From a virus, in the IMG/VR virus record IMGVR_UViG_3300025141_000021: a DNA stretch of 64,000 nucleotides. One strand, 5' to 3'. Shown here piece by piece: positions 1 through 36,110 of the stretch. A model generated the notes under the pieces. The model saw only the letters and a list, made by a program, of their open reading frames with translations, did not search any database and had not been told where the DNA came from. Position 1 is the first letter of the stretch. Each line of letters starts with the position of its first letter. The translations under genes and the position numbers were made by a program.

Positions 1-1482
1 GAAGTTCGCGCCGCCTCGCAGCGTCTTGCGGTGGATCTGGGCAGAAATGTCGTTGATGGTTTCAACGAGAGTTTCATACCACTCACTAACCGTACCAGTG
101 AAGTCGGGAGTTGCCGTAGCCGCTCCAACCTCTCTACCAGTCTTCCGATAAACGAATTTACCAGCATGACGGCTCCAGTAGTACGTACCAGCACTTGCCA
201 GCTTGACGAGATCCTCTAGGATCTCTTGGTCAATCTCTAGAGCAATCTGCTCAGAAAGAATACTAGTAAGCTCAACCTCTGCATCGAGATTGTGATAAGC
301 ATTCAAGTCTTGACCAAGCTCTGGGCTCCACTTAGCCTTAAGCTTCTTCGTCATCGCAGTGACAGACACGCTGTCAACCTTGATGTCGATCTCGGGAATC
401 TGTTGATTAGTCTCAAGACCCCAAGTATCCTCGCCAACAACCGCTCCTAGAGCAGCATTCGAGCCGGCAGCAGGAGTTCCACTAAAGGGATCCATAACCG
501 GGAACGAAGCCCCTGAAAGGTTGTTACCGGCAGCGGCCGGAGTGCAAAGCGAAGACGAAAGCTGCGCTAGCGTCTCACTACCACTAGCGGCAAGAACGAA
601 TAACAGCCGGGTGCTATCGTTAGGATCGCGACGAGTTAGCCGTCGAACCTGAACACCAACACCTGTGCCTAGGCCTTTGTGGACCGAGCCAACAGCGTGG
701 GCGCGACCTATGTCATCACCCGTAGTGCCTAGCTTGATGCCAACGAGGTTCTCAACGTTCAGCGGCTTGCCGCTGACCCCCTCGAAATCGCTAGCAACAG
801 TCGAAATGACAGCACAGTTAGTACCGGAAAGATCCGGGTCATACTGAATAAGTCTATCCCCCAAGCTTGCGAGCGTTGCGTGGGCTGCACCAAGGTACGC
901 ACCAGCGTGACCCCAAGCGGTGCCACCACCAGCATCTGCGCCACCAGAACCAGTGACCACATATACATCAGTCTCGTTGTTCCAGTCAATGGTTACACTA
1001 GCAGTTGCATGTGAATAACCATTATTTAGGTTGTAGAAGCTCTTTTCGGCACCAAGGCCGGTGAGAGAGACACCACCTGTAATTTCCTGACCAACCCGGT
1101 TACCACCAAAGAGCGAATCTTGCTTATCAGCGCCCAATCGGCTATTGGTATGTTGGAAGTCCAGGAAGAAAATGAGACCACTAGGTAGACTCATGGGCTG
1201 AACGGATACAATCTCGTTAGCCACTAGCCCGCCGAATACACGACGAACAATGGGAAAAGCGACAGAAGCGAAACCTTCAACGTCGCCTGCGGCCATAGTA
1301 GAAGCCTCACGGAGAAGCTCTTTGGCCTGGTTTTCCAGAAGACGCGCCATGCTCTCGCGAGCCTGGTCATCACCGATACCTTCCAAAAGTCCAGTCTTTT
1401 CCCACTTGCTTAGTAGGGCGTTACCTTCTTTTGATAGATCACGATTAATGATGCCTTCTGTTAATTTTTCTAATACAGACAT
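1..1482 (-). CDS. Major capsid protein, T4 gp23-like (3' end off-window)
   Basis: Translated by hand: MSVLEKLTEG...KWEKTGLLEG...ARLLENQAKELLREAS...VAFPIVRRVFGGLVANEIVSVQPMSLPSGLIFFLDF...KKLKAKWSPELGQDLNAYHNLDAEVELTSILSEQIALEIDQEIL...QIHRKTLRGGANF. Shine-Dalgarno (SD) AAGGAGGT at 1493-1500. Absent from the ORF track because there is no stop in the window. Confidence 0.95.
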   Translation of the reverse strand, partial: MSVLEKLTEGIINRDLSKEGNALLSKWEKTGLLEGIGDDQARESMARLLENQAKELLREASTMAAGDVEGFASVAFPIVRRVFGGLVANEIVSVQPMSLPSGLIFFLDFQHTNSRLGADKQDSLFGGNRVGQEITGGVSLTGLGAEKSFYNLNNGYSHATASVTIDWNNETDVYVVTGSGGADAGGGTAWGHAGAYLGAAHATLASLGDRLIQYDPDLSGTNCAVISTVASDFEGVSGKPLNVENLVGIKLGTTGDDIGRAHAVGSVHKGLGTGVGVQVRRLTRRDPNDSTRLLFVLAASGSETLAQLSSSLCTPAAAGNNLSGASFPVMDPFSGTPAAGSNAALGAVVGEDTWGLETNQQIPEIDIKVDSVSVTAMTKKLKAKWSPELGQDLNAYHNLDAEVELTSILSEQIALEIDQEILEDLVKLASAGTYYWSRHAGKFVYRKTGREVGAATATPDFTGTVSEWYETLVETINDISAQIHRKTLRGGANF

Positions 1483-1510: not shown

Positions 1511-2629
1511 TTATTTAACAAGTCCCGCCAAAACCTTCATTCGGTTATAAGCAGGGTCTGCCTTGCCGGTATCAGAATTTCTACGGCCTGATACCATTAG
1601 TGAGGAACTCTTAGTTACAGCTTCGCTCAGTGATTTTGGTCTTCTTCTGGAAGAAGTAGATCCCACCGTGCTTTGAAGCGTTTCATAAATAACTTTCGCT
1701 TCCTCAATTGTTCCGGCCTTTGTAATAGCTTCGACAAGTCTATCCTTTTGTCGCTCATTCAAGGAGGTATTGGTCAAAATCCGGTTTGTATAAAGTAACC
1801 TCGCGTTAGAAAGGTTAACTTTATCTAGATGTTCTTTAAGTGACACAATTGTGTCTTTGTATTTTTTGTTATTCTCGGAAACCTTTTGTAAATCAGTCTC
1901 CAATTTTGCAATTTGCTCAGCCAATTCATTATCTTCTGCTTCCTTTTCCTCAGCAGCGTCTTCTGCAATTGCTGCAACATCGCGTTGATAATTCAATTCA
2001 GTTTCAGATTTCTCAAGCCAACCAGACGAAGCTGGCTCCATGTCAATAGAAAGATCCTCGGCTAATTTATTTAAAAGCTCTGCCAACTCATCTTTCTCTA
2101 ATTCAGCCTCTTCATCTTCTTGTACGATCTCGGCGTCCTCAGAGGAGTTTTCTTCCGCATCTTCGTCTTCGCGAATACGATCAGCGTGCATGCGATTCTT
2201 TCCGACATCTCGATCTTCGTTGCCAGATCTCGCAGCTGCGCCGCCTTCCTGCAGGGCCATTTCCCCCGCAATTGCTTCTCTGTCCATCATATCGCTTGGC
2301 ATAGCTTCTCCTTTTTCTGCATCGATTTGTGCAGCTAGTGCATCAAAATCAATTTCAATTTCTTCGTCTTCATCCGGACAGGGGCAAAGATCTTCGCCTT
2401 CCATGGCCGCATCTGGTAACTGGTCGACAAACTCGCTTGGGGGCTCCACTTCTTCGCCGCCAACATCAGCAAATCCTTCTAATTCATCTTCTGGCTGCTC
2501 TAAAAGTGATTGAACTACTTCTTTGATTTCATTGGAGTATTTTTCAATAACCAAATTTTCCGCATTCTTTAATGCGGCTTCTTTAAGAGCGGTAGCATCA
2601 ATAATGGCTTGCTCAAGCATATGCGACAT
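1511..2629 (-). CDS. Prohead core scaffolding protein
   Basis: 372 aa, very acidic with a coiled-coil C-terminus (NLSNARLLYTNRIL...EAKVIYETL). Lies directly upstream of the capsid gene. SD AGGAG at 2636-2640. Confidence 0.8.
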   Translation of the reverse strand: MSHMLEQAIIDATALKEAALKNAENLVIEKYSNEIKEVVQSLLEQPEDELEGFADVGGEEVEPPSEFVDQLPDAAMEGEDLCPCPDEDEEIEIDFDALAAQIDAEKGEAMPSDMMDREAIAGEMALQEGGAAARSGNEDRDVGKNRMHADRIREDEDAEENSSEDAEIVQEDEEAELEKDELAELLNKLAEDLSIDMEPASSGWLEKSETELNYQRDVAAIAEDAAEEKEAEDNELAEQIAKLETDLQKVSENNKKYKDTIVSLKEHLDKVNLSNARLLYTNRILTNTSLNERQKDRLVEAITKAGTIEEAKVIYETLQSTVGSTSSRRRPKSLSEAVTKSSSLMVSGRRNSDTGKADPAYNRMKVLAGLVK

Positions 2630-8094: not shown

Positions 8095-8526
8095 CTACGC
8101 CAATTCTTTCCACTTCCCACCAGAAATATTCATAATCCCACTTATGTCTACTCCTGAATCTCCCGGATCAATACCAGTCAATGGGCCGCCAGGGGCTGCA
8201 GCCTGACCAGGCCGGCCGGCGCCGGGTGTAGGAGTTGTGTTTTCAAATAAATCAACTCCATTAAAAGCATCTTTGCCAATTACATCCAGCATCTTTCGCC
8301 TTGTCTCTGTTAACTTTTGTTTTATTTCTCTCTTTTCTTTCGTTCTTTCAACTGGTTTGTTTGTAGCTACAGTAGGGGCCGCAACTTGTTCAACAAGTGG
8401 AGCCGCTCCTATTCCTTTAACCACTTCTGCAATAATTCCAGACAATGCACCTTCTTCGAAAATTACTTCTTTGATGCATTCTTTAATCAGTGGTTTTAAA
8501 ACTTTCTTAAGTTCTTCACGCTTCAT
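8095..8526 (-). CDS. Hypothetical protein with leader-like N-terminus (MKREELKKVLKPLIKECIKEVIFEE)
   Basis: 143-aa ORF between the protease and bS21. Confidence 0.65.
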   Translation of the reverse strand: MKREELKKVLKPLIKECIKEVIFEEGALSGIIAEVVKGIGAAPLVEQVAAPTVATNKPVERTKEKREIKQKLTETRRKMLDVIGKDAFNGVDLFENTTPTPGAGRPGQAAAPGGPLTGIDPGDSGVDISGIMNISGGKWKELA

Positions 8527-8528
8527 AA

Positions 8529-9134
8529 TTACCTTTCAGTATTTCTCAAAATATCATTTAACGCACGGTTAATACGATCTGCCTTTGTAAAAATATTTGG
8601 CTCTTTGCTTTCTTTCATCATAAACGCACCAGTCGTTGAAGGCTCAGAAACAAAGTCGAAACATATTAATTGAAAATCATCTTCAACTATTGTTTGCCCA
8701 TTACTTTCTTGTACAGAACCCATCCCGCGAGAGGAGATACCCAACTTAACGCCGGAACTAACAAGCTCTTTTAAAACTTTTCCAGAAGGCGTATTAAGAA
8801 CCTGAACTTTTCCCATTACATCTTTGCCGTCCCACCAAACTTCAGTAACAAGGTGTGACGCATTCTTAAGATTGATGACAGAGTCTTCGGGATGGTCTAA
8901 CTCTCCCAAAGCTCTGCGTTCTTTAACAAGTTTATCATAATTTTGCATTTCCCTCATAAGAATTTTATGAGGATATATCCGACCATTTCCATTTTGCACA
9001 TCAGATCGTTGCATAATTCCGGAAAGAATCGTACCACCATTAGCGACAAATGCCTTCTCGTGCTCGGTTAGCAAGTCTTGACATACTCCACCTTCACAAA
9101 GTTCATAATATTCAGTTAATAATAACTTGGGCAT
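8529..9134 (-). CDS. Prohead protease, T4 gp21-like
   Basis: Motifs GIMQRSDVQNGNGRIYP, LGELDHP, GISSRGMGS, FDFVSEPST.GA. ATG 9134 is preferred over TTG 9140. Confidence 0.92.
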   Translation of the reverse strand: MPKLLLTEYYELCEGGVCQDLLTEHEKAFVANGGTILSGIMQRSDVQNGNGRIYPHKILMREMQNYDKLVKERRALGELDHPEDSVINLKNASHLVTEVWWDGKDVMGKVQVLNTPSGKVLKELVSSGVKLGISSRGMGSVQESNGQTIVEDDFQLICFDFVSEPSTTGAFMMKESKEPNIFTKADRINRALNDILRNTER

Positions 9135-9136
9135 AG

Positions 9137-9187
9137 TCAAGAACCTTTACAACAATGCCGTACTGGCTGTAACATCCATTTTTTCAT
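9137..9187 (-). CDS. 16-aa small ORF MKKWMLQPVRHCCKGS
   Basis: SD GGAGGTG at 9195-9201, 7 nt from ATG 9187. Its TGA ends 2 nt before the protease ATG. It fills an otherwise empty gap. Confidence 0.55.
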   Translation of the reverse strand: MKKWMLQPVRHCCKGS

Positions 9188-10099: not shown

Positions 10100-10923
10100 T
10101 AGTTTTTGATCTCATTGGCTAAACTTTGAATTTTTAGCACCTTTTTAATTATATCGCGAGAAACTATTTGGCTCTTAAAGCCTTCTAGAAGATCGATTAC
10201 GCTTTTGGTTTTTTTAATCATCTCGGGATCATCTTTAATTTCTTCGTTTTTAATTGACTCGGAGATACAATCTTTTAATCGGCCAATCTCCTCATTTAGA
10301 TAAACTTTAAGGCCAATGCCGTTATCATTAAACGACATAATATACTCTTTGAGTAGTTTGTTTTGCTCGCTAAGTAAGCCCTTATAGGCCTGATTAAACT
10401 TATCTACAAACGTGTTATAAACGATGTTGTCAACTGGCTCAAGACCTTCTCCACCGGGCGCCTTTTTCGCTATCATTTTTTTAATCATAGATTCTTCTAA
10501 AACAACACGTTTCCTAACCGTGGTTCTGTTGCTAAAAATCTGCGATATCGTTGCTAAATTTTTATAGTTCGGGATGAAATTGGAGAACACTGATGGGGAT
10601 AGCTTTTTATTGATATCGTTTATAATTGCAGTCTGCTCATCAAATAAGCCTTCTTCTGAAAAACCCTCGCCAAAGCGAGCACATTTAACTTCATGTAAAA
10701 GTTTTTCCGCAATATATTGATTCACCTCCCTTGTCTCATGCAGAATATTATATAACTCCATTTCTCGCGCAAGCATGCTGCCTTTCTTAAAATGAGTTCT
10801 AACCATTTCTAGTATGCTGTCTTTTCGTTTGCTGTTCTTTTCAACTACAGCTTTCGTCAATTCCCTGATTAACGTTTCATATAAAAACAGACTATTTCTC
10901 TTCTTATTATGTTTCATCTTCAT
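10099..10923 (-). CDS. Hypothetical helical protein downstream of portal
   Basis: 274 aa (MKMKHNKKRNSLFLYETLIREL...), overlaps the portal 3' end. Confidence 0.7.
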   Translation of the reverse strand: MKMKHNKKRNSLFLYETLIRELTKAVVEKNSKRKDSILEMVRTHFKKGSMLAREMELYNILHETREVNQYIAEKLLHEVKCARFGEGFSEEGLFDEQTAIINDINKKLSPSVFSNFIPNYKNLATISQIFSNRTTVRKRVVLEESMIKKMIAKKAPGGEGLEPVDNIVYNTFVDKFNQAYKGLLSEQNKLLKEYIMSFNDNGIGLKVYLNEEIGRLKDCISESIKNEEIKDDPEMIKKTKSVIDLLEGFKSQIVSRDIIKKVLKIQSLANEIKN

Positions 10924-12838
10924 TCTCGCGTGACTCCAAACCTGAAATTAATTGTTTAACCTCGCGCTTAACTTCAAACAAATTTTTCTCTTCAGTATAA
11001 GTAGGCTCCAAGTTCTCATTTATCCCATACATTGCACTTCTTAAGCCCATCAAATCTGAAAAGCCTTTAAAAGTATTTCTTCTTGTTGCTCTAGCCGTTT
11101 CATCCGAATATTGGCCTCTAGAGCTTCGCGTTCTAGCTCCTTGGTCTCTCTTATCGCTTTTGACGGGATGATATATCTTACCTTTTGCGCCGGGAGTTAA
11201 ATATCCATCTTCGCGTTTTCCTGGTGCAGCTAGAAGAGTTTCTTCTTCGCCGGTGTCGGCGGCCTCAAGTTCACCACCTTCTTCGCCACCTAAGCCTTCA
11301 AGGCCCTCTTCGCCACCCAAACCTTCAAGGCCCTCTTCGTCGCCTAAGCCTTCAAGACCCCCAAGGCCACCTGCTGCTTCTGCAGCGGCGGCTTCGGCAA
11401 TTGCCTCAAGCGAAGCTTCAAACTTCTTGTCATAGAACATTTCTCGTTGATTACGAAGGAACTCTTCATCAGACATATTAAACATCTTGTTGGCAATCCA
11501 GCGCTTAGAAAAGAAGCCTTCCGTTGCCGAAGCTGCAGTATCAAACTTGGTTTTCCAATGTTCAAGTTCTTGAAGTTCTGCAATCTTAGACGGGTTATTT
11601 AACGATAATTTAAAGTTTACTAAATCGTCCCCCTTAAACCCTAGAGTGTATAGATGAACAATACCAATCTTCTCAAGCTCTGTTAACATTGCTCTTTGTA
11701 ATCTTTGAATTGTCCTAGCAAAACGGATATCTTTTTGAGCTAAAGTTGTTTTGTCCTCGTCACTGTCTTCACCTCTAGAAAGATAAGCCTGTGGAACCTT
11801 AAGCGCTGAAAACAGTTTGTCTCTCAGATATTTAACATCATCAATGTCGCCAGTGTATGAGCCGCCAGTCAGGTTTTCGATCTTTGTATTTGAAGTGCCG
11901 CGGACAGGCAAAAAATAATCTTCTTCAATTGATAAAGGATTATAACGAAGATCTACGCGGCCAGTTGATGTATCAACAATTTGATGTCGCTTCATTGATG
12001 AAATAACTTTTTGTATATATTGTTCAACATCTTGTGGAGCGATGTTGCCAACATCAATATAAAATACTCTTCTATCCGGGGCACGGACAATTCTATAGGC
12101 CATCATCGCGTCTTCTAGAAGTACAAGTTGTCTCCAAATACGACGAGCAGCATCAAGGGTCGACGTTCCATATGGTGCGAACTTATCATTGCCAAGAATT
12201 CTAAAATGTGCAACTTGCCAATTCTCAAATGTCATCCCAGCCGAGTTCCACTGAAACTGAACATAATTTGGATTTGTCTTGTCTTCGCCTTCAAGCCTCT
12301 CAAGCTCATTCGTTGGCAGGCCCAGTACGTTGGTTACACCAAGTTCTTCATCCAAATCCATATAAAGGAAGAAGTCGCCAAATTTGCACATTGTTCGACA
12401 CCAACCAAACAGGTTGAACTCAATGTTCATGATGTTATAATAGAGTGACTGAAGTACTGCTTTAATTTCTTCGTTCGGGCATGCGATTGTTAGTAGGGGC
12501 TGCAGTTGACTTGAGGTTGTCATTTCATCGGCATATATATCAAGTGCCGATGCAATTTCTGGCATGTATTCCATCTGATCAAAGTCCACGTATCTTTCGA
12601 TACGGCTTTGATTCATCATTACTGGATGGCTTAAATTACCAAATGGATCGTAAGCTGCTCGTTTAAACTGTTGACCGCTCGCAGATCTAAACCTGCTAGA
12701 GTGTTTGTCCATCTGCCATCGTTTTTCGCGACGGGCTTGCTCTGCTCGATAATTAACCAGGGGTCCAGAAAATAATCTGGTTAGTGATTTGAATAATGTG
12801 CTTCCTTGATTTCTTGGATTTCTTTTTTGATCAGCCAT
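10907..12838 (-). CDS. Portal protein, T4 gp20-like
   Basis: PEIASALDIYADEMT, YGTSTLDAARRIWRQLVLLEDAMMAYRIVRAPDRRVFYIDVGN, EEDYFLP, DDVKYLRDKLFSALKVP. Confidence 0.93.
   Translation of the reverse strand: MADQKRNPRNQGSTLFKSLTRLFSGPLVNYRAEQARREKRWQMDKHSSRFRSASGQQFKRAAYDPFGNLSHPVMMNQSRIERYVDFDQMEYMPEIASALDIYADEMTTSSQLQPLLTIACPNEEIKAVLQSLYYNIMNIEFNLFGWCRTMCKFGDFFLYMDLDEELGVTNVLGLPTNELERLEGEDKTNPNYVQFQWNSAGMTFENWQVAHFRILGNDKFAPYGTSTLDAARRIWRQLVLLEDAMMAYRIVRAPDRRVFYIDVGNIAPQDVEQYIQKVISSMKRHQIVDTSTGRVDLRYNPLSIEEDYFLPVRGTSNTKIENLTGGSYTGDIDDVKYLRDKLFSALKVPQAYLSRGEDSDEDKTTLAQKDIRFARTIQRLQRAMLTELEKIGIVHLYTLGFKGDDLVNFKLSLNNPSKIAELQELEHWKTKFDTAASATEGFFSKRWIANKMFNMSDEEFLRNQREMFYDKKFEASLEAIAEAAAAEAAGGLGGLEGLGDEEGLEGLGGEEGLEGLGGEEGGELEAADTGEEETLLAAPGKREDGYLTPGAKGKIYHPVKSDKRDQGARTRSSRGQYSDETARATRRNTFKGFSDLMGLRSAMYGINENLEPTYTEEKNLFEVKREVKQLISGLESRENEDET
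11276..11356 (-). repeat. 3 x 27-nt tandem repeat (LEGLG[DG]EEG) in portal C-terminal tail
   Basis: CTTGAAGGCTTAGGCGACGAAGAGGGC / CTTGAAGGTTTGGGTGGCGAAGAGGGC / CTTGAAGGCTTAGGTGGCGAAGAAGGT. Confidence 0.9.
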
Positions 12839-12840
12839 TT

Positions 12841-14427
12841 TTAACCTTTATAAAGCCATGAGTGTTGTTTGGCTTCTTCCGTTTCTTCGTTTATTCTATC
12901 ATTATCTAATGATTTTTTATAGCCATGCATGCCAGGAATAATAGTTTGTATTCTTGTATCCGTTTTTACCATACAATTTAAAAACGCCTTGTTGTATTCT
13001 AAATCTCGTTGATTCGTTGTTAATGCTGTGTCTTTAACCCAACAGCTTATTGCAAAAGCCATGACGAGATCGTCATTATATCCTCGCATTGCCTGGGGTT
13101 TGCTGTTATTCCATATAAATGTTTTCAATTCATTTGCCATCCTTGAAGAAGGTGTTTTAATTAGTTTATTTCTTATAAACTCTTCCATTTTTGCGATTAT
13201 CAGCGGGCGCGTTTTAAGCGAAGTTGTAAAGCCGGCTATCGATCCCTTTCTAGTCTCAGCCTCAAGTTGATCAACATACTCATGTGTCGATTTAACTGAA
13301 TGATAAACATTTGGATATTCAGCGCCAATAATCTTTTCCAAGACCGCATAACCAATATTGTTATTTTCAATAACAATCATACAATTTCCATATTCTTTTC
13401 CGACCTCTTGCAAAAAATTGGCAAAAATATCTGTATTTGGTTTTCCTTGATATTCTGCAACAACATTCAAATCTTCTAACTTTATCACATGAAAAACAGA
13501 ATAGTCTTGTCCATCTCCCCTGGCCACATCCGCAGTTAATAAATAAGAATTCTCTGGCCTAAATTCTTCCCAAATCCAAAAGTTTCTATCAAAGCCGGTT
13601 CTATATTTTGGTTCTTTAATGTTGGACATCATCCACTCTAAATCATCAGGATGGACCACTGTCTCGCCAGAAGTGTTAAAGTTACATTCAAGTTCTTGCG
13701 CAATTTCTCTGCGTGACATATTGCGCGTCTCTTTAGCGAACCAAGGTTGGTCGCGATCTGGGTGTACTTGCCATGGCAATATTGTAGGATAAAAGTCATT
13801 CTTTTGCTCTTCAGAATCAATATATGTTTGATGAAACCAATTGCCAACACCGTTTGGGGTTGATAGTGCAATGCATCGACCACCTGTAGAAAGCGTAGGA
13901 TAAAGACCGGTCCATAGTTCTTCTAGGCCCTCAACGTGAGCAGCCTCATCAATCACTAATAAAGATAGTGCCTCTGAACGACCAGCATCCCCGGAAGTTG
14001 ATGATGCCTTAATCTGTGAGCCGTTAGCTAGTTCGAATGATGTTCTATTATCAATTGTAATATCTGCTATTTTTATCCACGGCGGAAGGTTTTTAATTAT
14101 GGATTTAACTTTCTTAACTAAGTTTGCCGCTGTGCTGAATTTTGTAGCAATAACAAGGACGTTCTTATCGCGATGAAACAATAGCATCCAAACGATATAT
14201 GCGGCAACAGTGGTTGATATTCCCAGCTGTCGAGCTTTTAATATAACGTTAAACCGATGATCGTTAAAATCGTTTATAAGTTGTTCTTGAAAATCATATG
14301 TTTTGAAAGGTATCAAGCCACGCATTGGGTGGGAAATTTTAGCATAATTGTTTATAAAGTAGGACGGGTCTTTGCCTGCTTTTATAACCTCTCTAACAAT
14401 TTCTTTTTTGGTGAGTTGATACGACAT
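12841..14427 (-). CDS. Terminase large subunit, T4 gp17-like
   Basis: ILKARQLGIST (Walker A), LLVIDEAAHV (Walker B), LSTPNG, LLTADVARG nuclease motif, NDDLVMA. Confidence 0.95.
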   Translation of the reverse strand: MSYQLTKKEIVREVIKAGKDPSYFINNYAKISHPMRGLIPFKTYDFQEQLINDFNDHRFNVILKARQLGISTTVAAYIVWMLLFHRDKNVLVIATKFSTAANLVKKVKSIIKNLPPWIKIADITIDNRTSFELANGSQIKASSTSGDAGRSEALSLLVIDEAAHVEGLEELWTGLYPTLSTGGRCIALSTPNGVGNWFHQTYIDSEEQKNDFYPTILPWQVHPDRDQPWFAKETRNMSRREIAQELECNFNTSGETVVHPDDLEWMMSNIKEPKYRTGFDRNFWIWEEFRPENSYLLTADVARGDGQDYSVFHVIKLEDLNVVAEYQGKPNTDIFANFLQEVGKEYGNCMIVIENNNIGYAVLEKIIGAEYPNVYHSVKSTHEYVDQLEAETRKGSIAGFTTSLKTRPLIIAKMEEFIRNKLIKTPSSRMANELKTFIWNNSKPQAMRGYNDDLVMAFAISCWVKDTALTTNQRDLEYNKAFLNCMVKTDTRIQTIIPGMHGYKKSLDNDRINEETEEAKQHSWLYKG

Positions 14428-14435
14428 ACATGGCC

Positions 14436-14726
14436 TTAGACGCTTTCTTCTCCTGGCGGAATCTCATCTGCATCTTCGTGACCATGTATAGCAGCAGTTT
14501 CCTCCTCTTTCATACGAGAGATAAGGCCTAGGGCAAATTCACGAAGATAGTCTTCAAGCCACATTGGCGGTGCCTCGCCGGCAACTGAAGCCTGTGCGCG
14601 GGCCAGCCCGGGGTCACCTGGTGGTCCTCCACCTTGTTCGCCCCCAATATCAAATTCTTCTAGCTTGGAGTGCTCTTTCACCTCTTCTTTAATAATTTCT
14701 TTTAGTCTTTGTCGGGTAAGTTTCAT
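14436..14726 (-). CDS. Small acidic protein with shared MKLT..LKEII.EE leader
   Basis: 96 aa, starts MKLTRQRLKEIIKEEVKE. Confidence 0.7.
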   Translation of the reverse strand: MKLTRQRLKEIIKEEVKEHSKLEEFDIGGEQGGGPPGDPGLARAQASVAGEAPPMWLEDYLREFALGLISRMKEEETAAIHGHEDADEIPPGEESV

Positions 14727-14727
14727 T

Positions 14728-15288
14728 TTATTGCTTCCCCTTGCGTGTCACATTTTTTGATTTCATGGCGCCAGGATATGTGTCTTTGCCAATTGCTAAC
14801 CACTTTTTGATTGCATCATCAACGTTATCTTCTGAGCCGGGAGCAATTTCTTCAACGTTAGACATGCCGCCAACGTTGTACCACTGAATTGCTCTTACGT
14901 CGGTTCTGCGACGAGATATTGGCTCGACACGAATATCGGGTTCTCCATCGGCAGTTATACTTAAAGCATTGCCAGTAACATTTTTATATTCTTTTCTCAT
15001 ATATTTGGCAATATCTTTTAATCTTCCAATAATCTCGTTTTCAAATCCATTTTCATGAACCTCTTTTAAGTTGGCCTGAGAATGATAAAGTATACGAAGA
15101 CGAGGACCAGCCATGCTGACCGTAAATCCGTCCATTGTTCTAGAATCTAAAATTGGATCGCCCTGTTCTCTCTTAAGGCCGGCCTTTCGGGCTTTGCCAT
15201 CAGCCATATATCGTTCATCATGTGATCCATCATAGGCGTTGGCTGCAGCCTGTGATATTCCTTTTAGTATTTCGTCTGGTGTCGGCAT
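14728..15288 (-). CDS. Hypothetical protein
   Basis: 186-aa ORF tightly packed in the operon. Confidence 0.7.
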   Translation of the reverse strand: MPTPDEILKGISQAAANAYDGSHDERYMADGKARKAGLKREQGDPILDSRTMDGFTVSMAGPRLRILYHSQANLKEVHENGFENEIIGRLKDIAKYMRKEYKNVTGNALSITADGEPDIRVEPISRRRTDVRAIQWYNVGGMSNVEEIAPGSEDNVDDAIKKWLAIGKDTYPGAMKSKNVTRKGKQ

Positions 15289-15614
15289 TATCGGTTAACT
15301 CCTAATTCAATATCCATGGCTTCTTCTGCAGCGCGGCGTACCTCGGCTGGATCCATCCCTTCTTTTTCTACATAGTCTTGCATAAGATCGCCCAACACAT
15401 AAACCAGATTTTCGTAGGTGCTGTAGTGGTCTTCGGGCATGCTCATTTCTCCGGTCTGGGCGTCGACCCATGGACCCGGGTGCGGCGTAGGTCCGGGTCT
15501 GGTTCCTTTTTCTTCTTCAAGCCCTCCGCCGCGAGGCGCGGTCTCTTCCAAGAAATATCTCGGATCAATCCGTCGTTTGCGTTTTGTTGGTTTTGACCAT
15601 CTGTGAGCTGCCAT
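15288..15614 (-). CDS. Hypothetical protein (basic N-terminus, acidic body)
   Basis: 108 aa, GGAG upstream, starts ...KPTKRKRRIDPRYFLEE. Confidence 0.6.
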   Translation of the reverse strand: MAAHRWSKPTKRKRRIDPRYFLEETAPRGGGLEEEKGTRPGPTPHPGPWVDAQTGEMSMPEDHYSTYENLVYVLGDLMQDYVEKEGMDPAEVRRAAEEAMDIELGVNR

Positions 15615-15617
15615 AAT

Positions 15618-15998
15618 TTATTCTCCTTGTGGGCGCCATCCGGTTGTCCATCGTTCTTCCCGAAACTCAACCCACTGAACGTAACATTTATGACAACAAT
15701 CGTATCTGTTCATATAAATGTCGTCTTGTGAGTTAAAAGAATAAACTTTGCACACAGGACAAGTACGGTTTGACTCTTTATTAAGTAGCTTTTTAGAAAC
15801 TAAAAATCCGTTTATTTCTACTTTTTCCTTTTTCTCGCTTAGCTTCTGTTCTTTTAATGAAGCGCGCTTTAATTGTTCATTATATTGTTTCTCTTTTTCT
15901 TCGCTCCAGCCGGCTTTTGGATTTTGTACAGCTTCTTTCCCATATTTCTGTGCAATTGCTTTTTCAAGATTTGCAATGTAGTTTTGATCTTTTTTCAT
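15618..15998 (-). CDS. Hypothetical zinc-finger-like protein
   Basis: 126 aa with CPVC...CCHKC and a C-terminal EERWTTGWRP. Confidence 0.7.
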   Translation of the reverse strand: MKKDQNYIANLEKAIAQKYGKEAVQNPKAGWSEEKEKQYNEQLKRASLKEQKLSEKKEKVEINGFLVSKKLLNKESNRTCPVCKVYSFNSQDDIYMNRYDCCHKCYVQWVEFREERWTTGWRPQGE

Positions 15999-16012
15999 TT
16001 TTCATTTTAAAG

Positions 16013-16486
16013 TTACTTGCCTACTTGTACGGCCGCGGCAAAAGTCCCAAGAGCCAAGGCCATTCCCAAAGCCATGCCTCCTGCAAAAATCCATGGAGCG
16101 GCTGCCCTTTGTTTGCTTGTTTTCATTACAAGATCGTGAAGCCTCTGATTCTCTGCTGCTTTAAGTGCCATCATTGATTCGTGTCGTTCTTTCCAGCTTT
16201 CAATCGTAATATCTTTTGTATCTAATTCTAACTTAAAACGAGTTTGCTGTAATTCAAGCTCATAATTCACACGAAGATCACATTCAAGATCTTCAAATTT
16301 TTTATCGGTAATTATTTTGGCAGCCGCATTCGGAGAAAGAAGTACTCCTGCAAATGGGGCAATATCCCCTAGTTCAAGATTTATTATATCTATATTTGCC
16401 GCTTCTTCTGTTTCTTCTTCAGCAAAGGCGGCGAGGGGAAAAGCTAAATTAAAGATTAATATCAGTGATAAAAATTTTTTAACCAT
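16013..16486 (-). CDS. Exported protein: signal peptide, coiled coil, C-terminal TM helix (spanin-like candidate)
   Basis: From ATG 16486: MVKKFLSLILIFNLAFPLAAFA|EE. C-terminus PWIFAGGMALGMALALGTFAAAV. Confidence 0.6.
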   Translation of the reverse strand: MVKKFLSLILIFNLAFPLAAFAEEETEEAANIDIINLELGDIAPFAGVLLSPNAAAKIITDKKFEDLECDLRVNYELELQQTRFKLELDTKDITIESWKERHESMMALKAAENQRLHDLVMKTSKQRAAAPWIFAGGMALGMALALGTFAAAVQVGK

Positions 16487-16901
16487 GTTCGAAACCATAC
16501 AATCTGGCTAGCTCTCTAGAAAGCCTCTCTGGGTCATTATAACCTTGCTCGACCAATTTTTTAAGCTCTCTCTTTTTCGCTGAACTTAATTTCTTTTCTT
16601 CTTCTGCCAGCTTGCCTTCAACCTTTTCAAGGTTTTTATTGTATTCTTTTAAAATGGTATCCCTTTTTTCAATCTCATTTTGATGAATTTTATCAACTAT
16701 CTCTATTTGATTTTCATAATCTTTTTTAGAATTTTCTATATAATCTAATAATGCGGTAAGAAATACTTGTTTTCTCGTTAAAGCCCACAATAAAAGCCCA
16801 ACAGCTATTAATAGTGTTACAAATGGTATCTGCCAATGTGATTTAAGCCAGAGCCATGTTTTCTTTAATTTATTTTTTAATACCAAAAAACCGATAGTCA
16901 T
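16479..16901 (-). CDS. Membrane protein: N-terminal TM plus coiled coil (i-spanin-like candidate)
   Basis: HWQIPFVTLLIAVGLLLWAL followed by a long charged heptad region. Confidence 0.6.
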   Translation of the reverse strand: MTIGFLVLKNKLKKTWLWLKSHWQIPFVTLLIAVGLLLWALTRKQVFLTALLDYIENSKKDYENQIEIVDKIHQNEIEKRDTILKEYNKNLEKVEGKLAEEEKKLSSAKKRELKKLVEQGYNDPERLSRELARLYGFEHG

Positions 16902-16903
16902 TA

Positions 16904-17737
16904 CTAATCTGCTTTCTTTTCAGGAGCAGCGGGCCTCTCAATATTAAATGGCGATTCTTTTGTTTTGCCCGGGCGCGCCATTCGTCCCATAAATCTTTGA
17001 GCGATATCAATACTTGTGGGGTCAACCCCTGTAACTGCGGAAGCTAAAAAGTCCAAACTTCTATCTAGATTATCAATACCTACCAACAATTTGCTAAGCA
17101 CTTTTTCAAGATTTTGAAATTGGTTTTGTGATGCCTGGGACATGCCGTGATCATCTCCATTGAATTCGGCTAAAGTATTTTCAAGCTCTTCTCTGATGAT
17201 TTCTTCTAATCCTAAATCAGTGTTACCCCGAGGCGCTGCGGCGGGTTCGCCCTCATCTTCTATCTGAAATTCAACGCCAAATTTATCTTTAAGGCCTTTT
17301 TTAATGATATCGAGCGCTTCACCTTGTTGAATTGATGCTAATAGTTCGTGGGCTGTTTTAAAATCTCCGGTGCCGGCCGCATATATTATAGCCTGCAATA
17401 AGCCAGTCCTAGTTTCTTCAACCAATGGCCCAAGCTCTTCTTTTATTAAACCAAAAAGATTTTCTAAACGGGTCCGAGCTTCTTGTAATCCATGCATAGA
17501 TCTGTCTCGCCCGCCCGGGCGCAGCTGACTAAACATGGCAACCAACTCGTTAGCCTGTTGATTAATCATTTGAATTCCAACAAAAAGCTGATTTAACATT
17601 TCAGCAGCCCCTTTTGGATCTATCTGAATTTTTTGAAAAGCAAGAGTGCCTGCCCCCTGAGACTCGGGATCGGCTTCATCTAGCTTTTCTAGTTCTTCTT
17701 TAACGATTTCTTTTAGTCTAGATCTGGCAATTTTCAT
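16904..17737 (-). CDS. Acidic protein with shared leader and two internal leader-like copies
   Basis: MKIARSRLKEIVKEELE; internal LIKEELGPLVEE and LEEIIREELENTLAE. Confidence 0.7.
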   Translation of the reverse strand: MKIARSRLKEIVKEELEKLDEADPESQGAGTLAFQKIQIDPKGAAEMLNQLFVGIQMINQQANELVAMFSQLRPGGRDRSMHGLQEARTRLENLFGLIKEELGPLVEETRTGLLQAIIYAAGTGDFKTAHELLASIQQGEALDIIKKGLKDKFGVEFQIEDEGEPAAAPRGNTDLGLEEIIREELENTLAEFNGDDHGMSQASQNQFQNLEKVLSKLLVGIDNLDRSLDFLASAVTGVDPTSIDIAQRFMGRMARPGKTKESPFNIERPAAPEKKAD

Positions 17738-18018
17738 TATTTTTCCGCCAATGAAGCATCAGCCTTTTCCAGCAACCCACCTAGATCATTTTTATATGCA
17801 ATACCTTCTTCAGTCACCGGATTCCAAGTATCATATAAAGTTTGCAATTCGTGAAATGATACCGATAAATCTCTAACTTTCTCCAAGCCAACTGAAGGAG
17901 CTTCCCTTTCCCAGCCCGGGCCTGTCGGATCTGGAAGATTTTCTAGTTCCCCGCGGGGAAGCCATTCTCTTAGCTCTTTCCTTACTAATTCTTTTAGTGT
18001 TTCTTTCGTAAGCTTCAT
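17737..18018 (-). CDS. Small protein with shared leader
   Basis: MKLTKETLKELVRKELRE, ATGA-coupled to the upstream gene. Confidence 0.7.
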   Translation of the reverse strand: MKLTKETLKELVRKELREWLPRGELENLPDPTGPGWEREAPSVGLEKVRDLSVSFHELQTLYDTWNPVTEEGIAYKNDLGGLLEKADASLAEK

Positions 18019-18242
18019 CGTCTGCCTTCTCTACCAAAATGCGTCTGCAGTATTGTCATTAATTTGCCTAGTTTACCCTCAAGATCTGTTATGCGAAGAC
18101 TGAGTTTATCATATAGTTCCATAACAAGCGGATCTGGCGACTGGAAGGTTCCTCTCTGACTGGGATCATAATGCCCAGCCAGGCCTCCTTCTTTAATTTC
18201 TTCTCTGATAATACCTTCTAATTCTGATTTAGTAATTTTCAC
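18015..18242 (-). CDS. Small protein with shared leader
   Basis: GTG start, MKITKSELEGIIREEIKE, GTGA overlap. Confidence 0.7.
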   Translation of the reverse strand: MKITKSELEGIIREEIKEGGLAGHYDPSQRGTFQSPDPLVMELYDKLSLRITDLEGKLGKLMTILQTHFGREGRR

Positions 18243-18517
18243 TGGTCTAGTCCCTCCCGACTATAAATTATAACATCTCGTTCCGACCCATCTACGTATT
18301 CAGCCGCCTGTCTTAAAACATCTGAAATTTTCATATCTTGAAATATTGGCGGATGTTCTGGGAGAAGGTCTCTTTCTATAAATCTGACAATTCCACTATA
18401 GAACATATCCGCAACAGACCGAACATGTCTCGACAATGCATCCGGCGCAACTTCTGGGGCCTCTTCCTCCATTACTTCTTTAATAACTTTCTTTAAGTCC
18501 ACTCTTGTAAGCTTCAT
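18239..18517 (-). CDS. Small protein with shared leader
   Basis: MKLTRVDLKKVIKEVMEEE, ATGA overlap. Confidence 0.7.
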   Translation of the reverse strand: MKLTRVDLKKVIKEVMEEEAPEVAPDALSRHVRSVADMFYSGIVRFIERDLLPEHPPIFQDMKISDVLRQAAEYVDGSERDVIIYSREGLDQ

Positions 18518-18933
18518 CTTTTAGGGCCTCCGTATTTTTTTTTATCTTGGTTCAATAAACCAATCATATATCTAGCAACGTCTTTAGCAATGAAGACAAC
18601 GGCTTCAGGAACATAACCCTCATCCTCAACTATTGGCTCGGTTACTCTAGATATTGCCTTTGCCAATTTATATTCTAATGTAGCATATGGCTTAGTAGGA
18701 AATTTCTCATATTCTTTTTTATATATCTCCGCCTCTTGAAGGATTATTTCCTTTAATTCAAATTTTGTAATTTTGTTTGTTTTGTCGATAGATTCATTTG
18801 CATGAGTATGCAAAGCTGCAAGATAATCTTTAACTGGACCATCCGTGCATCCTACTTTTTTATCGTTTTCTTTTTTATACACGCAAGTTTTTCCCTTATC
18901 TTTGCCGGCGCCTTTTCTTGAATAATAGGGCAT
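18514..18933 (-). CDS. Two-module small protein with internal leader-like motif
   Basis: MPY...CVYKK...GCT...YLAALHTHANE followed by KITKFELKEIILQEAE. Confidence 0.65.
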   Translation of the reverse strand: MPYYSRKGAGKDKGKTCVYKKENDKKVGCTDGPVKDYLAALHTHANESIDKTNKITKFELKEIILQEAEIYKKEYEKFPTKPYATLEYKLAKAISRVTEPIVEDEGYVPEAVVFIAKDVARYMIGLLNQDKKKYGGPKR

Positions 18934-19145: not shown

Positions 19146-22100
19146 TTATTGCTGAACTTGCGCTAATCCTCGCTTTTTATCTATGACGATCTGCATATCA
19201 ACACAGTCTTTCAGATTATCCAAATGGGATATTAAAAGCACTGTTTTGAAGTGTCCCTTAATCATGTCTAAAATTCTAACAAACCCTTCCATATTTTCTT
19301 CATCTAGCGCTGTTCCAGGCTCGTCTAGAATAAATATGTTTGGTTTTGGCAGGTTTGACACATTAAGAAGGGCAAGTCGAATAGCCATTGCGGCAATCGT
19401 CTTTTCTGCTCCCGAGCCCATTTCAAGTGGGCGTGCGCCATACTTTGGATGCTTAATAAAGATATTAAGCTTTCTACTGTCGTTCTCAAAAAAGACTTCG
19501 AAATTGACCACATTGGTTAATACCTTTGCGATCTCTTCATTAATCACGGGAAGCTGCATTTTAATAATATCATATGATATACCGCTTGTATGCATTGCGC
19601 GCATATATAAATCATATGCGGAAAACTCTTCTCGCAATGACTTAAGCTCTTCTTTTTGGCTTTCTAAATTATTGACCCTTTGTTCGAGCGAGCCGTGATT
19701 TTTATATAAATCAAGAAGCTCGGCTTCACATTGTTCTAAAGACTTAGTATTCGCCGTAATTGTATTTTTAAGTTCTTCTTTTTCCAACAGCAACGCTTCT
19801 AAATTTTCAATTGCCTCTTTGTTTTCTTCATATTTCTTGGCTTTGTCTTCCATATTCTCAATAAAAAGTTCAAGCCTGGCAATTTGAGAATCGTTCTTTT
19901 CGATCTCCAATTTTGTTGATGTTAACTCACGAGTAGTTTCTTGCCTTTTGTCAACAATCTTGTTATATTTTGCTAATTGACTATCGACCTTTTCTGGATC
20001 TAATTCTGCAAGGTCTTTGTTAATTACGCTTCGGCGGCTGCAAAAATTTATTAATACCTGTTGAGTTGAGCCTAGTTGTTTTCGCGCTGCAATAGCGTCA
20101 TGTAAAAATTTACATGTAGGAAACTGGTCTCCGCAAGGCACCTCTTTTAAAAGCTCAGTCTTTTTTTCTTCTCGCTCAAGTTTTTCTTCTGTTCTACAGA
20201 CTTCGTTATATAACTTATCGGAAGTTTCCTGTTTTTCTTTAATTAATTCACTATCTTTTATCAGTTGTTTTGAATTATAAGCCGCCAAGAATTCACTAAT
20301 TTTGTCAAAAAACCTTTCACGCGTATTTAGCTTTGTGTGCAGTCTTTCATTTTCATTTCTAAACTGATCTAGTTCTTCTCTATTAATAATTAGCTCATTA
20401 TTAAGCTCTATGATATCGATAACCTCTGCAGGAATTGCTGCAATGGATGCCGTAATTGTATCAATTCCTTTTTTGGTTTTTTCTATTGTCTTCTTAACTT
20501 TTCCACATTCTTTCTTCTTGTCCTCGGTTGTGTTCTCGTTGACAAAAAGCTCTTTGGTTACAGCCAAAATTTCATCATCAAACTCGCGCCCTTCGAGCCG
20601 TTTGAGCGCACCTTTAAGATCTGCAGCATCCTCCTTTGCAATCTTAAACTTCTTTTCAAAAACTTCTAAATCGAGGAATTTAGCTAAAATTTCTTTTCTT
20701 CTTGTTGATCCCTCGCTAATAAACAATAGAGAACCAAGCTGAGAAGACATCGATGTAAGCAGAAAATCGTCTAATGATCCAAACATACGACGAATGTTCT
20801 TATCTGTATCGTTTCTTGTCATTCCGTTCAGACTGACAATTTCATCAATAACAGGATCATAAGAAGAAAAGTTTACATCAGTCTTTGCTTCTGTCGTTTC
20901 TTCACCGTGTAATCGTTTTTGATATTTTTCAGAAATACGCTCAATTGATATCAACTTATTGCCAACAAGAATTTCAGCCTTTCCAGAACCAACATTTTTG
21001 GTTTGATTAATGACATTCAAATTTTTGCGGACGTTCTTTGACGTTGAGTTATACATTGTATATAAGAGGCTGTCAATGATACTTGATTTGCCAGAATAAT
21101 TCTTTCCAAATATTCCAACAGTTCCGTTTAAGCTATCAAAATCAATATAGTTATTCCCGCCATAATTAAATAAATTGTCCCACTCCAGGCGCTTCAGTCT
21201 CCACTTAACGTTGCGGGAAACTTCTTCGCTCTCTTCCGCCAACGCATTGTATTTATTATTAAGTTCAAAGACTTTTTGAAGCACCTCTTCCTCAATTTCA
21301 TAGTCCTTCAAATATTCGCCAATTAGTTTCTCTTGCACCGCAAGATCGCGCAAATCTTCAATTCGAATATTATTAGTTAAGTCTTCAACGTTTGCTTCGT
21401 TTCTCGCTCGATTTAAATAAGTAATTGCTTCAGGTCTAAACCTGCGCTTGGCTATATCAATAGCTTTTCGTAGGGCGTCGACAGATACCTTATTGCTACT
21501 TACGAGGCGCAGGCGGGCGCCTTCTGGTATTGTGAGGGCCCGGGGCAGGCGACCTTTGGGAGTTAGTTCAATGGTAATAAACGGCTTAGGATTCTTAAGC
21601 AGGCGATGTTCAACATTGAAGGTGTCCTTGTCTTTAATGTCCCAAATCAAAATCCCCTTATCATTGGTCTCGCCATGGTTTTGTTGGATTGTTGAACCGA
21701 CATATCTTACTCTGCCTTCGTGATCCAATATCTGATTTGTCTTATGAATATCTCCTAAAAATGCAAAATCATGTCCTTCAAAAATTGAAACATCATGATC
21801 GCCATGTTCCATCACCCAGCCAACATCTGTCGTGACTCCTGCGATTGAACCGTGATAAAGCGCAATATTAATCTTATCGACGTTGGTTGGTTCGACCCAC
21901 GCGTCTTCATCAAAAATAGACAGGACGTTCAAACAATAATTATTATCTAAATGAACCTCGCCAGACTGTTTTAACAGATGTAGATCATCTAATTCTAGTG
22001 CTTCAACAATTGGTGTAATTGCGTCTTGTCGACTGCTATTTTTTAGGTTGCCATCGTGATTACCAAGAATAACATACGTTGGTGCGATCTCGGCTAAGTT

Positions 22101-22295
22101 GCGGAAAAAATTGGAACACATGTCGACAAACTCTGGTGAAAGCTGTGTCTTCGTATGAGCGATATCTCCGCAATGGACAATATAGTCCACCTTTTCTTTT
22201 CGTAATATTTCATAAAGCTGGTCAAAAACTTTACGGTATTCATAATGATATTTTAGATTTTTAATATGTGTATCAGCTAAATGTGCAAATTTCAT
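19146..22295 (-). CDS. Fused SbcD/Mre11-like nuclease and SbcC/Rad50-like SMC ATPase (gp47-gp46-like)
   Basis: Phosphoesterase motifs DTH, GD, GNHD, HG and GDIH. Then Walker A GKNYSGKS, a long coiled coil, Walker B ILDEPGTALD and H-loop LISH, all in one 1049-aa frame. Confidence 0.9.
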   Translation of the reverse strand: MKFAHLADTHIKNLKYHYEYRKVFDQLYEILRKEKVDYIVHCGDIAHTKTQLSPEFVDMCSNFFRNLAEIAPTYVILGNHDGNLKNSSRQDAITPIVEALELDDLHLLKQSGEVHLDNNYCLNVLSIFDEDAWVEPTNVDKINIALYHGSIAGVTTDVGWVMEHGDHDVSIFEGHDFAFLGDIHKTNQILDHEGRVRYVGSTIQQNHGETNDKGILIWDIKDKDTFNVEHRLLKNPKPFITIELTPKGRLPRALTIPEGARLRLVSSNKVSVDALRKAIDIAKRRFRPEAITYLNRARNEANVEDLTNNIRIEDLRDLAVQEKLIGEYLKDYEIEEEVLQKVFELNNKYNALAEESEEVSRNVKWRLKRLEWDNLFNYGGNNYIDFDSLNGTVGIFGKNYSGKSSIIDSLLYTMYNSTSKNVRKNLNVINQTKNVGSGKAEILVGNKLISIERISEKYQKRLHGEETTEAKTDVNFSSYDPVIDEIVSLNGMTRNDTDKNIRRMFGSLDDFLLTSMSSQLGSLLFISEGSTRRKEILAKFLDLEVFEKKFKIAKEDAADLKGALKRLEGREFDDEILAVTKELFVNENTTEDKKKECGKVKKTIEKTKKGIDTITASIAAIPAEVIDIIELNNELIINREELDQFRNENERLHTKLNTRERFFDKISEFLAAYNSKQLIKDSELIKEKQETSDKLYNEVCRTEEKLEREEKKTELLKEVPCGDQFPTCKFLHDAIAARKQLGSTQQVLINFCSRRSVINKDLAELDPEKVDSQLAKYNKIVDKRQETTRELTSTKLEIEKNDSQIARLELFIENMEDKAKKYEENKEAIENLEALLLEKEELKNTITANTKSLEQCEAELLDLYKNHGSLEQRVNNLESQKEELKSLREEFSAYDLYMRAMHTSGISYDIIKMQLPVINEEIAKVLTNVVNFEVFFENDSRKLNIFIKHPKYGARPLEMGSGAEKTIAAMAIRLALLNVSNLPKPNIFILDEPGTALDEENMEGFVRILDMIKGHFKTVLLISHLDNLKDCVDMQIVIDKKRGLAQVQQ

Positions 22296-35162: not shown

Positions 35163-36110
35163 CTACTCCTTGGTAAAAACGCTTTTCGCTTTTCTTCCTG
35201 GATGTAAGGCCCTTATTGTTTCTTTTGGTATTTCTGAATCAATCGAAACCTCCATATAATATTCAACACTAGTATTATCAGTTTCATATTCGATTTCTTG
35301 AATTTCGTTTGGATCCAATAATAAATTATTCTGTACTAAAGAAGTTCTCTTCGCAAAAGATAGGGGAGTTAATTCCTCATGAAGATCGCTTCTGGTAATC
35401 CCGGGCGTTGTTTGACCACCAGTAACATCTTCAACTTCAAAAACTTCAATATCAAAATTTTCGTTTGTAAATAATGAATTGTTTTCAAGTACTTCTAAAA
35501 TAATTCTCTCTTTAGTACCCCCCATATTAACTGAAGTACCATCATATTCAAGCTCATATTCGATATCTGCATCTAGTTGTGGGATTCTAAAGTTTGGATG
35601 TGATCCTGTAGAATAGCTAACGGAACTTGAAAGTTCTCCAGCCAAAAAATTAATTGCCCATGATGGTAAAAATTCTGAATTTAATTCAGATGTTCCCAGT
35701 GGTGCGCCCAGAATATACGCTTTCTCTGCAGTTGGTGGAGGGAGCGGCTTGGGCTCGCGGTAAACCTGATACAACGTGCTGGCACGGCGCGCGGTTCCAG
35801 GTGGGAGGGCGGGATGCTGGAGGAAGTGGCGCTTACTTACCTGCGTTTCTGCGCCAGTATATATGTGTTGTACACGAAGATTTGGAGTGTCGTCTTGAAT
35901 TCTGCCCTCTGTTGCATTCTGTGCCTCAGATACAGGCTCGGGGTCATGACCGGGAGTCAAAGTCGGCGCGCTGTATTGTATATCATACAAAATGTCATCA
36001 TCAAAAAAAGCATAATATGTTGGACGCCATTTGCCCTTGGAAAGCAAAGTTTTTCCATATTGGGTTAGCTTAATTTCAATTACTTCTTCTTTTTTATTAA
36101 AAAATGTCAT
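35163..36110 (-). CDS. Virion structural protein, N-terminus paralogous to 26287..27222
   Basis: 315 aa. EIKLTQYGKTLLSKGKWRPTYYAFFDDDILYD. Confidence 0.6.
   Translation of the reverse strand: MTFFNKKEEVIEIKLTQYGKTLLSKGKWRPTYYAFFDDDILYDIQYSAPTLTPGHDPEPVSEAQNATEGRIQDDTPNLRVQHIYTGAETQVSKRHFLQHPALPPGTARRASTLYQVYREPKPLPPPTAEKAYILGAPLGTSELNSEFLPSWAINFLAGELSSSVSYSTGSHPNFRIPQLDADIEYELEYDGTSVNMGGTKERIILEVLENNSLFTNENFDIEVFEVEDVTGGQTTPGITRSDLHEELTPLSFAKRTSLVQNNLLLDPNEIQEIEYETDNTSVEYYMEVSIDSEIPKETIRALHPGRKAKSVFTKE

Follow-up and report, generated by a model that had tools for sequence, protein, structure and literature searches.

A shared N-terminal leader on dissimilar proteins of a marine T4-like phage lineage as a candidate capsid-targeting propeptide

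The four capsid-targeted proteins of phage T4 are the textbook case of proteins that are injected together with the phage DNA, and an anti-restriction factor is among them. The propeptides of the T4 internal proteins comprise 10–19 residues, bind to the core and are then removed. Cleavage by the protease gp21 takes place behind the Glu of L/I-x-E; positions 4 and 7 of IPIII are important for targeting and positions 8 and 10 for processing (PMC9026906). In this work we describe a leader of 15 residues that is shared by otherwise dissimilar small proteins encoded in 64,000 nucleotides (nt) of DNA from the IMG/VR virus record IMGVR_UViG_3300025141_000021 (this whole stretch is called the window below). 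The leader, named class A, is probably a T4-type capsid-targeting propeptide that would be removed by the head protease. No description of it was found in the papers searched, among which the relevant texts concern only T4 and giant phages.

As in T4 IPI, IPII, IPIII and Alt, several proteins without further relationship share a short N-terminal peptide, which begins with Met-Lys and ends with I-x-E in both systems, and the tagged gene set varies between related phages. The phage of the window also encodes a gp21-family protease and a T4-type portal, terminase and capsid protein. What would be new in comparison to T4 is a different and longer sequence (15–16 residues versus 10 in IPII and IPIII), the presence of several exchangeable leader classes (at least three in one lineage), the frequent occurrence of fused multi-leader proteins and a very large cargo repertoire, with the leader heading thousands of protein clusters worldwide and 6–12 genes per complete relative versus four in T4. 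Whereas the internal proteins of T4 are termed 'basic proteins' in a review, the bodies found here are mostly acidic.

A similar principle is found in the giant phages phiKZ, 201phi2-1 and SPN3US, in which a distant gp21 homologue (gp175/gp245) cuts many head proteins, inner-body and ejection proteins among them, after the Glu of a three-residue motif. Their propeptides are thought to target the prohead and several cut sites per propeptide are usual. However, the motif of the giant phages is S/A-x-E while the leader described here has a hydrophobic P3 residue, and their propeptides are mostly longer than 100 residues without one shared portable sequence, in contrast to the short and uniform peptide found here. 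Encapsulin cargo-loading peptides are also short and portable and load diverse cargo into an HK97-fold shell, like the proposed leader, but they are usually C-terminal, are not cleaved and bind the shell directly, and their cargo is not delivered to another cell. The tags of ribosomally synthesized and post-translationally modified peptides (RiPP) and of radical S-adenosylmethionine (SAM) systems likewise represent one conserved N-terminal sequence on many divergent proteins; they travel with a modifying enzyme, however, and the bodies found here are whole proteins of 50–1000 amino acids (aa).

The class A leader and its spread

All real genes of the window are located on the minus strand, and its class A leader has the sequence M-K-[IL]-[TA]-[KR]-x-x-L-K-x-[IV]-[IV]-[KR]-E-E. 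The open reading frames (ORFs) of the leader-gene region are the following:

18514–18933, minus strand: 139-aa ORF with an internal class A leader at codons 53–67 (nt 18733–18777), followed by a unique body
18239–18517, minus strand: 92-aa ORF with class A leader, body without relatives
18015–18242, minus strand: 75-aa ORF with class A leader and GTG start, body without relatives
17737–18018, minus strand: 93-aa ORF with class A leader, body without relatives
16904–17737, minus strand: 277-aa ORF with class A leader, a fusion protein
14728–16901, minus strand: block of four conserved small genes (140, 161, 126 and 186 aa) between the two variable slots
15288–15614, minus strand: 108-aa ORF with a class B leader
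14436–14726, minus strand: 96-aa ORF with class A leader, in the variable slot between the conserved 186-aa gene and the large terminase

A first-pass annotation of this DNA had quoted leader N-termini at 14726, 17737, 18018, 18242 and 18517, an internal copy within 18514–18933 and a related N-terminus at 8526. The five N-termini are all present on the minus strand at these starts, the internal copy begins at codon 53 of the 139-aa ORF and the related N-terminus is a looser form carried by a 143-aa ORF. Four genes had been described as being chained by start/stop overlaps, which are real, but the chain comprises five ORFs with overlaps of 4 nt (139/92, 92/75 and 75/93 aa) and 1 nt (93/277 aa). 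The GTG start of the 75-aa ORF (18242) is preceded by a GGGAGGG Shine-Dalgarno run. The dissimilarity of the sequences behind the leader was also confirmed, as the 92-, 75-, 93- and 96-aa bodies show no BLASTP similarity among themselves or to the rest of the set, and no Pfam or PHROG family was found for the leader proteins of the window.

In order to follow the leader beyond the window we compiled a set of 198 related viral loci (1.81 Mb), part of which were obtained via the back-translated leader pattern. With a position matrix of the leader 148 matches were recorded in the window and 80 related loci, all of them on the gene strand, and in the full set 433 leader ORFs were detected in 164 of the 198 loci, again without any antisense match, which excludes chance. 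The class A consensus is M-K-I-T-K-x-x-L-K-Q-I-I-K-E-E-[LIV], in which L8, I12 and E14 are each at least 90% invariant (I12 in 85 of 90 leaders, with V or L otherwise, and E14 in 88 of 90). At the nucleotide level the invariant L8 is encoded by all six Leu codons, I12 by three Ile codons and E15 by GAG about as often as by GAA, and an ordinary Shine-Dalgarno site is located upstream of the leader ATG. Thus selection acts on the leader peptide, as the synonymous codon differences within the window had already suggested. The leader had also been called amphipathic, which applies to a moderate degree with a mean hydrophobic moment of 0.35 versus 0.26 in shuffled leaders.

Two complete relatives of 186 and 195 kb contain 12 and 6 profile matches at E ≤ 1, and 11 and 3 at E < 1e-3, respectively. 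Using a 30-column leader profile as query against 1.84 billion representative proteins we identified 9,834 protein clusters at E ≤ 0.001 (122 at E ≤ 1e-10), and the leader-bearing proteins range from about 46 to 1071 aa. The motif is virus-specific: a strict leader DNA pattern was found in at least 120 IMG/VR viral stretches and in one contig from 596 Gb of bacterial and archaeal genomes, so that the motif is not equally common on cellular proteins; equal frequency there was what the first-pass annotation had named as speaking against its proposal. The sole cellular match (L203, PBSV01000031.1, from an Opitutia metagenome-assembled genome) is a 73-aa leader ORF on a 15.9-kb contig with no recognisable phage genes nearby and no homologue of window genes over a distance of 8 kb. 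It may point to the host or be a fragment of a phage that entered the bin. Among the phages in GenBank neither blastn with the leader region nor tblastn with the commonest leader-protein family gave a match, and the same was true for tblastn with the leader itself, for which the 22-aa query is too short. The cultured Flavobacterium phage immuto, a distant relative, encodes two proteins (gp176 and gp190) that begin with a shortened leader, in which the hydrophobic-x-Glu site reads L-R-E in gp176 and I-K-E in gp190.

The head module and the cleavage rule

The low-coordinate end of the window contains a T4-type head module, which together with the borders of the leader-gene region consists of:

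1–1482, minus strand: gp23-type major capsid protein (PF07068, E 2e-41), C-terminus beyond the window edge
1511–2629, minus strand: 372-aa acidic protein at the gp22 scaffold position just before the capsid gene
8095–8526, minus strand: 143-aa conserved head-module protein just after the protease, residues 7–21 fitting the leader pattern
8529–9140, minus strand: gp21-type prohead serine protease (Peptidase_S77, E 9e-32)
10907–12838, minus strand: T4-type portal (E 1e-74)
12841–14427, minus strand: large terminase (gp17-like), conserved right-hand border of the leader-gene region
19146–22295, minus strand: fused Mre11/SbcD-Rad50/SbcC nuclease, conserved left-hand border of the variable island

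A 1399-aa protein also precedes the capsid gene, and the fused nuclease resembles T4 gp47 and gp46. Identities of the terminase amount to 44% with Flavobacterium phage immuto, 41% with Microcystis phage Mel-JY01 and about 70% with hundreds of marine IMG/VR contigs, which places the window in an uncultured marine lineage that is a distant relative of T4.

With its I12-x-E14 the class A leader matches the L/I-x-E rule of gp21, and a second [LIV]-x-E usually follows within four residues. In T4 the leaders of IPII and IPIII end in I-A-E↓A (read from NC_000866). Aligning the capsid proteins places the T4 gp23 cut L-T-E↓A on L57-R58-E59↓A60 of the window protein (nt 1306–1314), and the same position reads V-S-E↓A in immuto and I-S-E↓A in Mel-JY01. 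Furthermore, the N-terminus of the window protease carries L-L-T-E where T4 gp21 has L-L-I-E. From both observations it is plausible that the cleavage rule is conserved and that the window protease shares the specificity of gp21. The T4 core protein gp67 (L084:6782-7024; L-numbers denote loci of the related set) contains D-L-I-K-E-E, similar to Q-I-I-K-E-E of the leader, a match that is very short.

We also analyzed how often hydrophobic-x-Glu occurs outside of the leader. It is about 10% rarer than expected in 233 cargo bodies (417 seen versus 461 ± 17 expected, z = -2.5) and commoner than expected in the conserved neighbours (154 versus 121, z = +3.8). The 372-aa protein contains 5.1 such motifs per 100 aa, the 143-aa protein 4.9 and a 274-aa head-module protein about 5, as expected of core proteins that are digested. 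The depletion in the bodies weakly favours survival of the cargo.

Cargo bodies, gene islands and exchange of leaders

Grouping of 429 leader proteins by their bodies resulted in 246 groups, of which 204 are singletons, and together with the 433 leader ORFs this agrees with the many fast-turnover small ORFs that the first-pass annotation had expected in relatives. The 26 loci that were mapped share one gene-order frame in which an SbcCD-like nuclease is followed by a variable island, the conserved 140-, 161-, 126- and 186-aa genes, a second variable slot and then the terminase. Leader genes occupy both variable places; in the window the four-gene run and the 139-aa gene lie in the first island and the 96-aa gene in the second slot. 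The synteny maps of these loci show that the tagged genes change greatly from one related phage to another and that the leader is retained. The 140-, 161-, 126- and 186-aa genes are the commonest neighbours of leader genes, being present in 78–87 of the 164 leader-bearing loci, and terminase, portal, protease, SbcCD-like nuclease and four small genes are the recurrent ones.

The majority of the bodies have no Pfam family, and a scan of the first 90 leader proteins gave no family in Pfam and only unnamed families in PHROGs. The domains that could be recognised are a leucine-rich repeat (LRR), a pentapeptide repeat, two GNATs, a zeta-toxin-like kinase, DnaJ, FliG_C and a nucleotidyltransferase. 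In one locus (L141:6258-7055, minus strand) a class A leader forms a fusion with a YkuD L,D-transpeptidase domain, which has intact His/Cys motifs and lacks a signal peptide. A cell-wall enzyme lacking an export signal would make sense if it were carried in the virion, and the YkuD, LRR, pentapeptide, GNAT, zeta-like kinase and DnaJ bodies all appear effector-like. Regarding their charge, 63% of the bodies are acidic with a median isoelectric point of 5.4.

Two further leader classes are located in the same gene islands as class A. Class B consists of a basic run followed by IDPRYF-[ML]-x-E, heads 27 ORFs with differing bodies and is represented in the window by the 108-aa ORF (basic run, then IDPRYF-L-E-E); a hydrophobic-x-Glu follows within about 10 residues downstream of these leaders. 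Class C (M-K-x-L-x-E-N-W-x-x-[FHY]-[LIV]-x-E) was found in about 37–39 ORFs of relatives, for example in L139:2581-2982, L155:440-1456, L204 and L205, and not in the window. Directly after the leader 33 of 37 class C proteins carry [LIVM]-x-E, which the pattern used to find them did not require. In one complete genome of 186 kb class A and class C arrays lie side by side.

Homologous bodies were detected behind different leaders, with 63% identity over 115 aa for C versus A, 82% over 77 aa for A versus B, 52% over 117 aa for B versus A and 76% over 70 aa for C versus B. In the clearest pair (L041/L166) the similarity of the bodies begins directly after an L-x-E, and in the other pairs it begins within about 30 residues of the leader. 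It is difficult to account for three unrelated but interchangeable leaders, all ending in the protease motif, unless they are equivalent modules for address and cleavage.

In the relatives a conserved 24-nt element, CTAAGYATGAATGGATTAGCAAC, immediately precedes many class B and C genes (for example L128:4050-4095, L099:1920-1965, L154:990-1037). In class C genes it reaches up to the ATG so that no Shine-Dalgarno site is left. The element, which does not occur in the window, might act as a promoter or regulatory site specific to the lineage. The variable island of 32 related loci harbours a tubulin/FtsZ-like gene (about 376 aa, PF00091; L155:1973-3124, L107:909-2039, L033:3913-5043) with Gly-rich GTP-binding motifs and an acidic N-terminal extension, of which the window has no copy. 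At 117–150 kb of the complete relative G001 (L204, L205) arrays of very small genes starting with M-K/Q-[IV]-G-D-L-V-K adjoin the leader arrays as a separate multi-copy family.

The leader also occurs inside of proteins. Of the 150 best database matches, 142 have a leader copy at the N-terminus, and two to four copies, spaced by a median of 142 aa, are present in 143; the list is ranked by summed score, which favours multi-copy proteins. Most internal copies retain the Met and a preceding E-[NSG]-K, which is Shine-Dalgarno-like when read in frame, and the downstream part may therefore be translated separately. E-[NSG]-K was also considered as a conserved protease joint and was rejected, as it may equally be an in-frame reading of the downstream Shine-Dalgarno site and its spacer.

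The 277-aa protein of the window is such a fusion, and only three close relatives were obtained from a search of 5.8 billion proteins. Its residues 173–277 are homologous to residues 4–92 of stand-alone proteins of the commonest leader-protein family, and its internal L-E-E-I-I-R-E-E-L (nt 17168–17221), a degenerate leader, aligns with the N-terminal leader of the latter; in this internal copy the L..II.EE half is preserved, and M-K-I-T-K has disappeared. AlphaFold2 models this leader-like segment as a helix and residues 173–277 as three helices, in both cases with a predicted local distance difference test (pLDDT) score of 64, so that the model is too weak for a fold search. An organization in three modules was considered, and homology supports two of them, the middle block being without relatives. 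The commonest family is semi-conserved across the clade with a fixed place before the conserved 140-aa gene, and inside the 277-aa fusion it may represent a head-core component rather than an effector. In the 139-aa protein an N-terminal module of about 45 aa with two Cys (MPY..GK.CVYKK..GC) precedes the leader-like helix. The same module was found in L007, L028, L112, L168 and L182 with different C-terminal bodies, and may be a further address or adaptor module.

Proposed mechanism and alternative explanations

We consider it fairly probable that the class A leader is a T4-type capsid-targeting propeptide which is removed by the head protease. According to this model the leader, as a short helix, would bind to the scaffolding core of the assembling prohead with the 372-aa acidic protein (1511–2629) as presumed docking partner, and any leader-bearing protein would thereby be enclosed. 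The gp21-type protease (8529–9140) would then cut after Glu14 of I12-x-E14, often followed by a second cut at another hydrophobic-x-Glu a few residues further on, and internal leader copies in fused proteins would be cut as well. By analogy with T4, L8 and the N-terminal half would be important for loading, and I12 and E14 for cutting. The freed bodies would remain inside the head and exit with the DNA at infection, and the lineage would swap its cargo freely across two fast-turnover slots with at least three interchangeable leader classes. Capsid targeting had already been proposed in the first-pass annotation, and it has gained from the protease gene located 5 kb downstream, the I-x-E fit, the L-R-E↓A of the capsid protein and the agreement of all sequence-level predictions that were examined, and also from the fast turnover of the cargo, the virus-specific motif and the exchange of leaders between homologous bodies. 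With regard to the accompanying idea of a variable set of effectors it is of note that the bodies are mostly acidic and that one of the five leader proteins of the window contains the semi-conserved and possibly head-core family. A wider interpretation, in which a globally spread marine T4-like lineage uses an open and modular capsid-cargo address system with at least three interchangeable leader classes, protease-cut multi-leader chains and about ten thousand protein clusters including cell-wall, kinase, acetyltransferase and repeat-protein effectors, is possible with somewhat less than an even chance.

Several points weigh against capsid targeting. No homology of the leader to the T4 leaders (IPII/IPIII, IPI) was found, and as the two have no more in common than an initial Met-Lys and a final I-x-E it would be an analogue or a far-diverged form and not a demonstrable homologue. 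The fit to the protease rests on a three-residue rule that is frequent by chance (about 2 per 100 residues), and the depletion of the cut motif in the bodies is modest with a small control set. The acidic bodies are unlike the T4 internal proteins. In a complete relative the largest array (a tandem of seven leader genes) is located more than 100 kb away from the head genes, such distant arrays lie among small hypervariable genes, and nothing in this arrangement suggests late expression. The T4 late promoter TATAAATA was also considered; it is not positioned before leader genes and is at most weakly enriched in the window, and is therefore uninformative on timing.

The leader might also direct proteins to the prohead core that are expendable assembly parts, which would be digested and expelled at maturation and not delivered, as modelled on T4 gp22, gp67 and gp68. 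This would suit bodies that are mostly acidic and in many cases predicted to be helical, the fixed place of the semi-conserved commonest family (including residues 173–277 of the 277-aa protein), and the 277-aa protein itself, whose 3.6 hydrophobic-x-Glu per 100 aa are closer to those of the putative core proteins (about 5) than to those of most cargo. However, the rapid turnover with 204 of 246 body groups being singletons is unexpected for assembly parts, YkuD, GNAT, kinase and LRR bodies have no assembly role, and over all bodies together the cut motif is depleted instead of enriched, so that we regard this explanation as unlikely.

It seems rather improbable to us that the leader is a tag unrelated to the capsid and recognised by another partner, for example a modifying enzyme, a chaperone or a machine for sorting or export. 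The tubulin/FtsZ-like gene in the variable island of 32 loci hints at intracellular organisation, yet it is missing from the window, which has six leader copies. No modifying enzyme was found among the conserved neighbours of the leader genes, for which the recurrent clusters from 1,274 neighbour ORFs were examined (9 clusters present in the window and 10 others scanned with Pfam). It also speaks against such a tag that the three leader classes, although unrelated, all lead to hydrophobic-x-Glu and can replace one another, and that internal copies keep L..II.EE and lose the N-terminal half, which suits a protease or docking site better than a sorting signal.

The leader genes lie in tandem arrays with translational coupling, as is usual for duplicated genes, and the leader could be the sole conserved part of one fast-evolving family of paralogues, for example an oligomerisation helix without any address function. 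As the bodies include unrelated Pfam folds, as the same body is found behind different leader classes and as the leader heads proteins of such different lengths, this is very unlikely. Finally, conservation at the level of the nucleic acid, as a translation-initiation or regulatory element or a recombination site, is highly improbable despite the A-rich leader codons after the ATG and the separate 24-nt element of the relatives, as the invariant residues use all their synonymous codons, internal in-frame leader copies are conserved and the 24-nt element does not occur in the window.

If the capsid-targeting model is true, capsid loading would not be a curiosity of the T-even phages but a major delivery route for abundant ocean phages, by which large and rapidly changing protein sets would be delivered into their hosts. 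A location and a timing, namely the virion and the first moments of infection, could then be assigned to thousands of unannotated marine viral ORFs, and the leader would indicate where to look for new anti-defence and takeover functions. It might also serve as a short natural tag for the packaging of proteins into non-coliphage capsids. Should the wider interpretation as a modular address system hold, this would be by far the largest virion-delivered protein set known for any phage group. As the cultured Flavobacterium phage immuto carries a shortened leader, the idea of capsid loading is directly testable.

Outside of the leader-gene region the window contains two giant ORFs of 3,986 and 2,584 aa (36107–48067 and 51929–59683, minus strand) in the presumed tail/baseplate region. 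In the window capsid protein (1–1482, minus strand) a large insertion relative to T4 gp23 follows at about residue 100, and its length differs among immuto, Mel-JY01 and the window.

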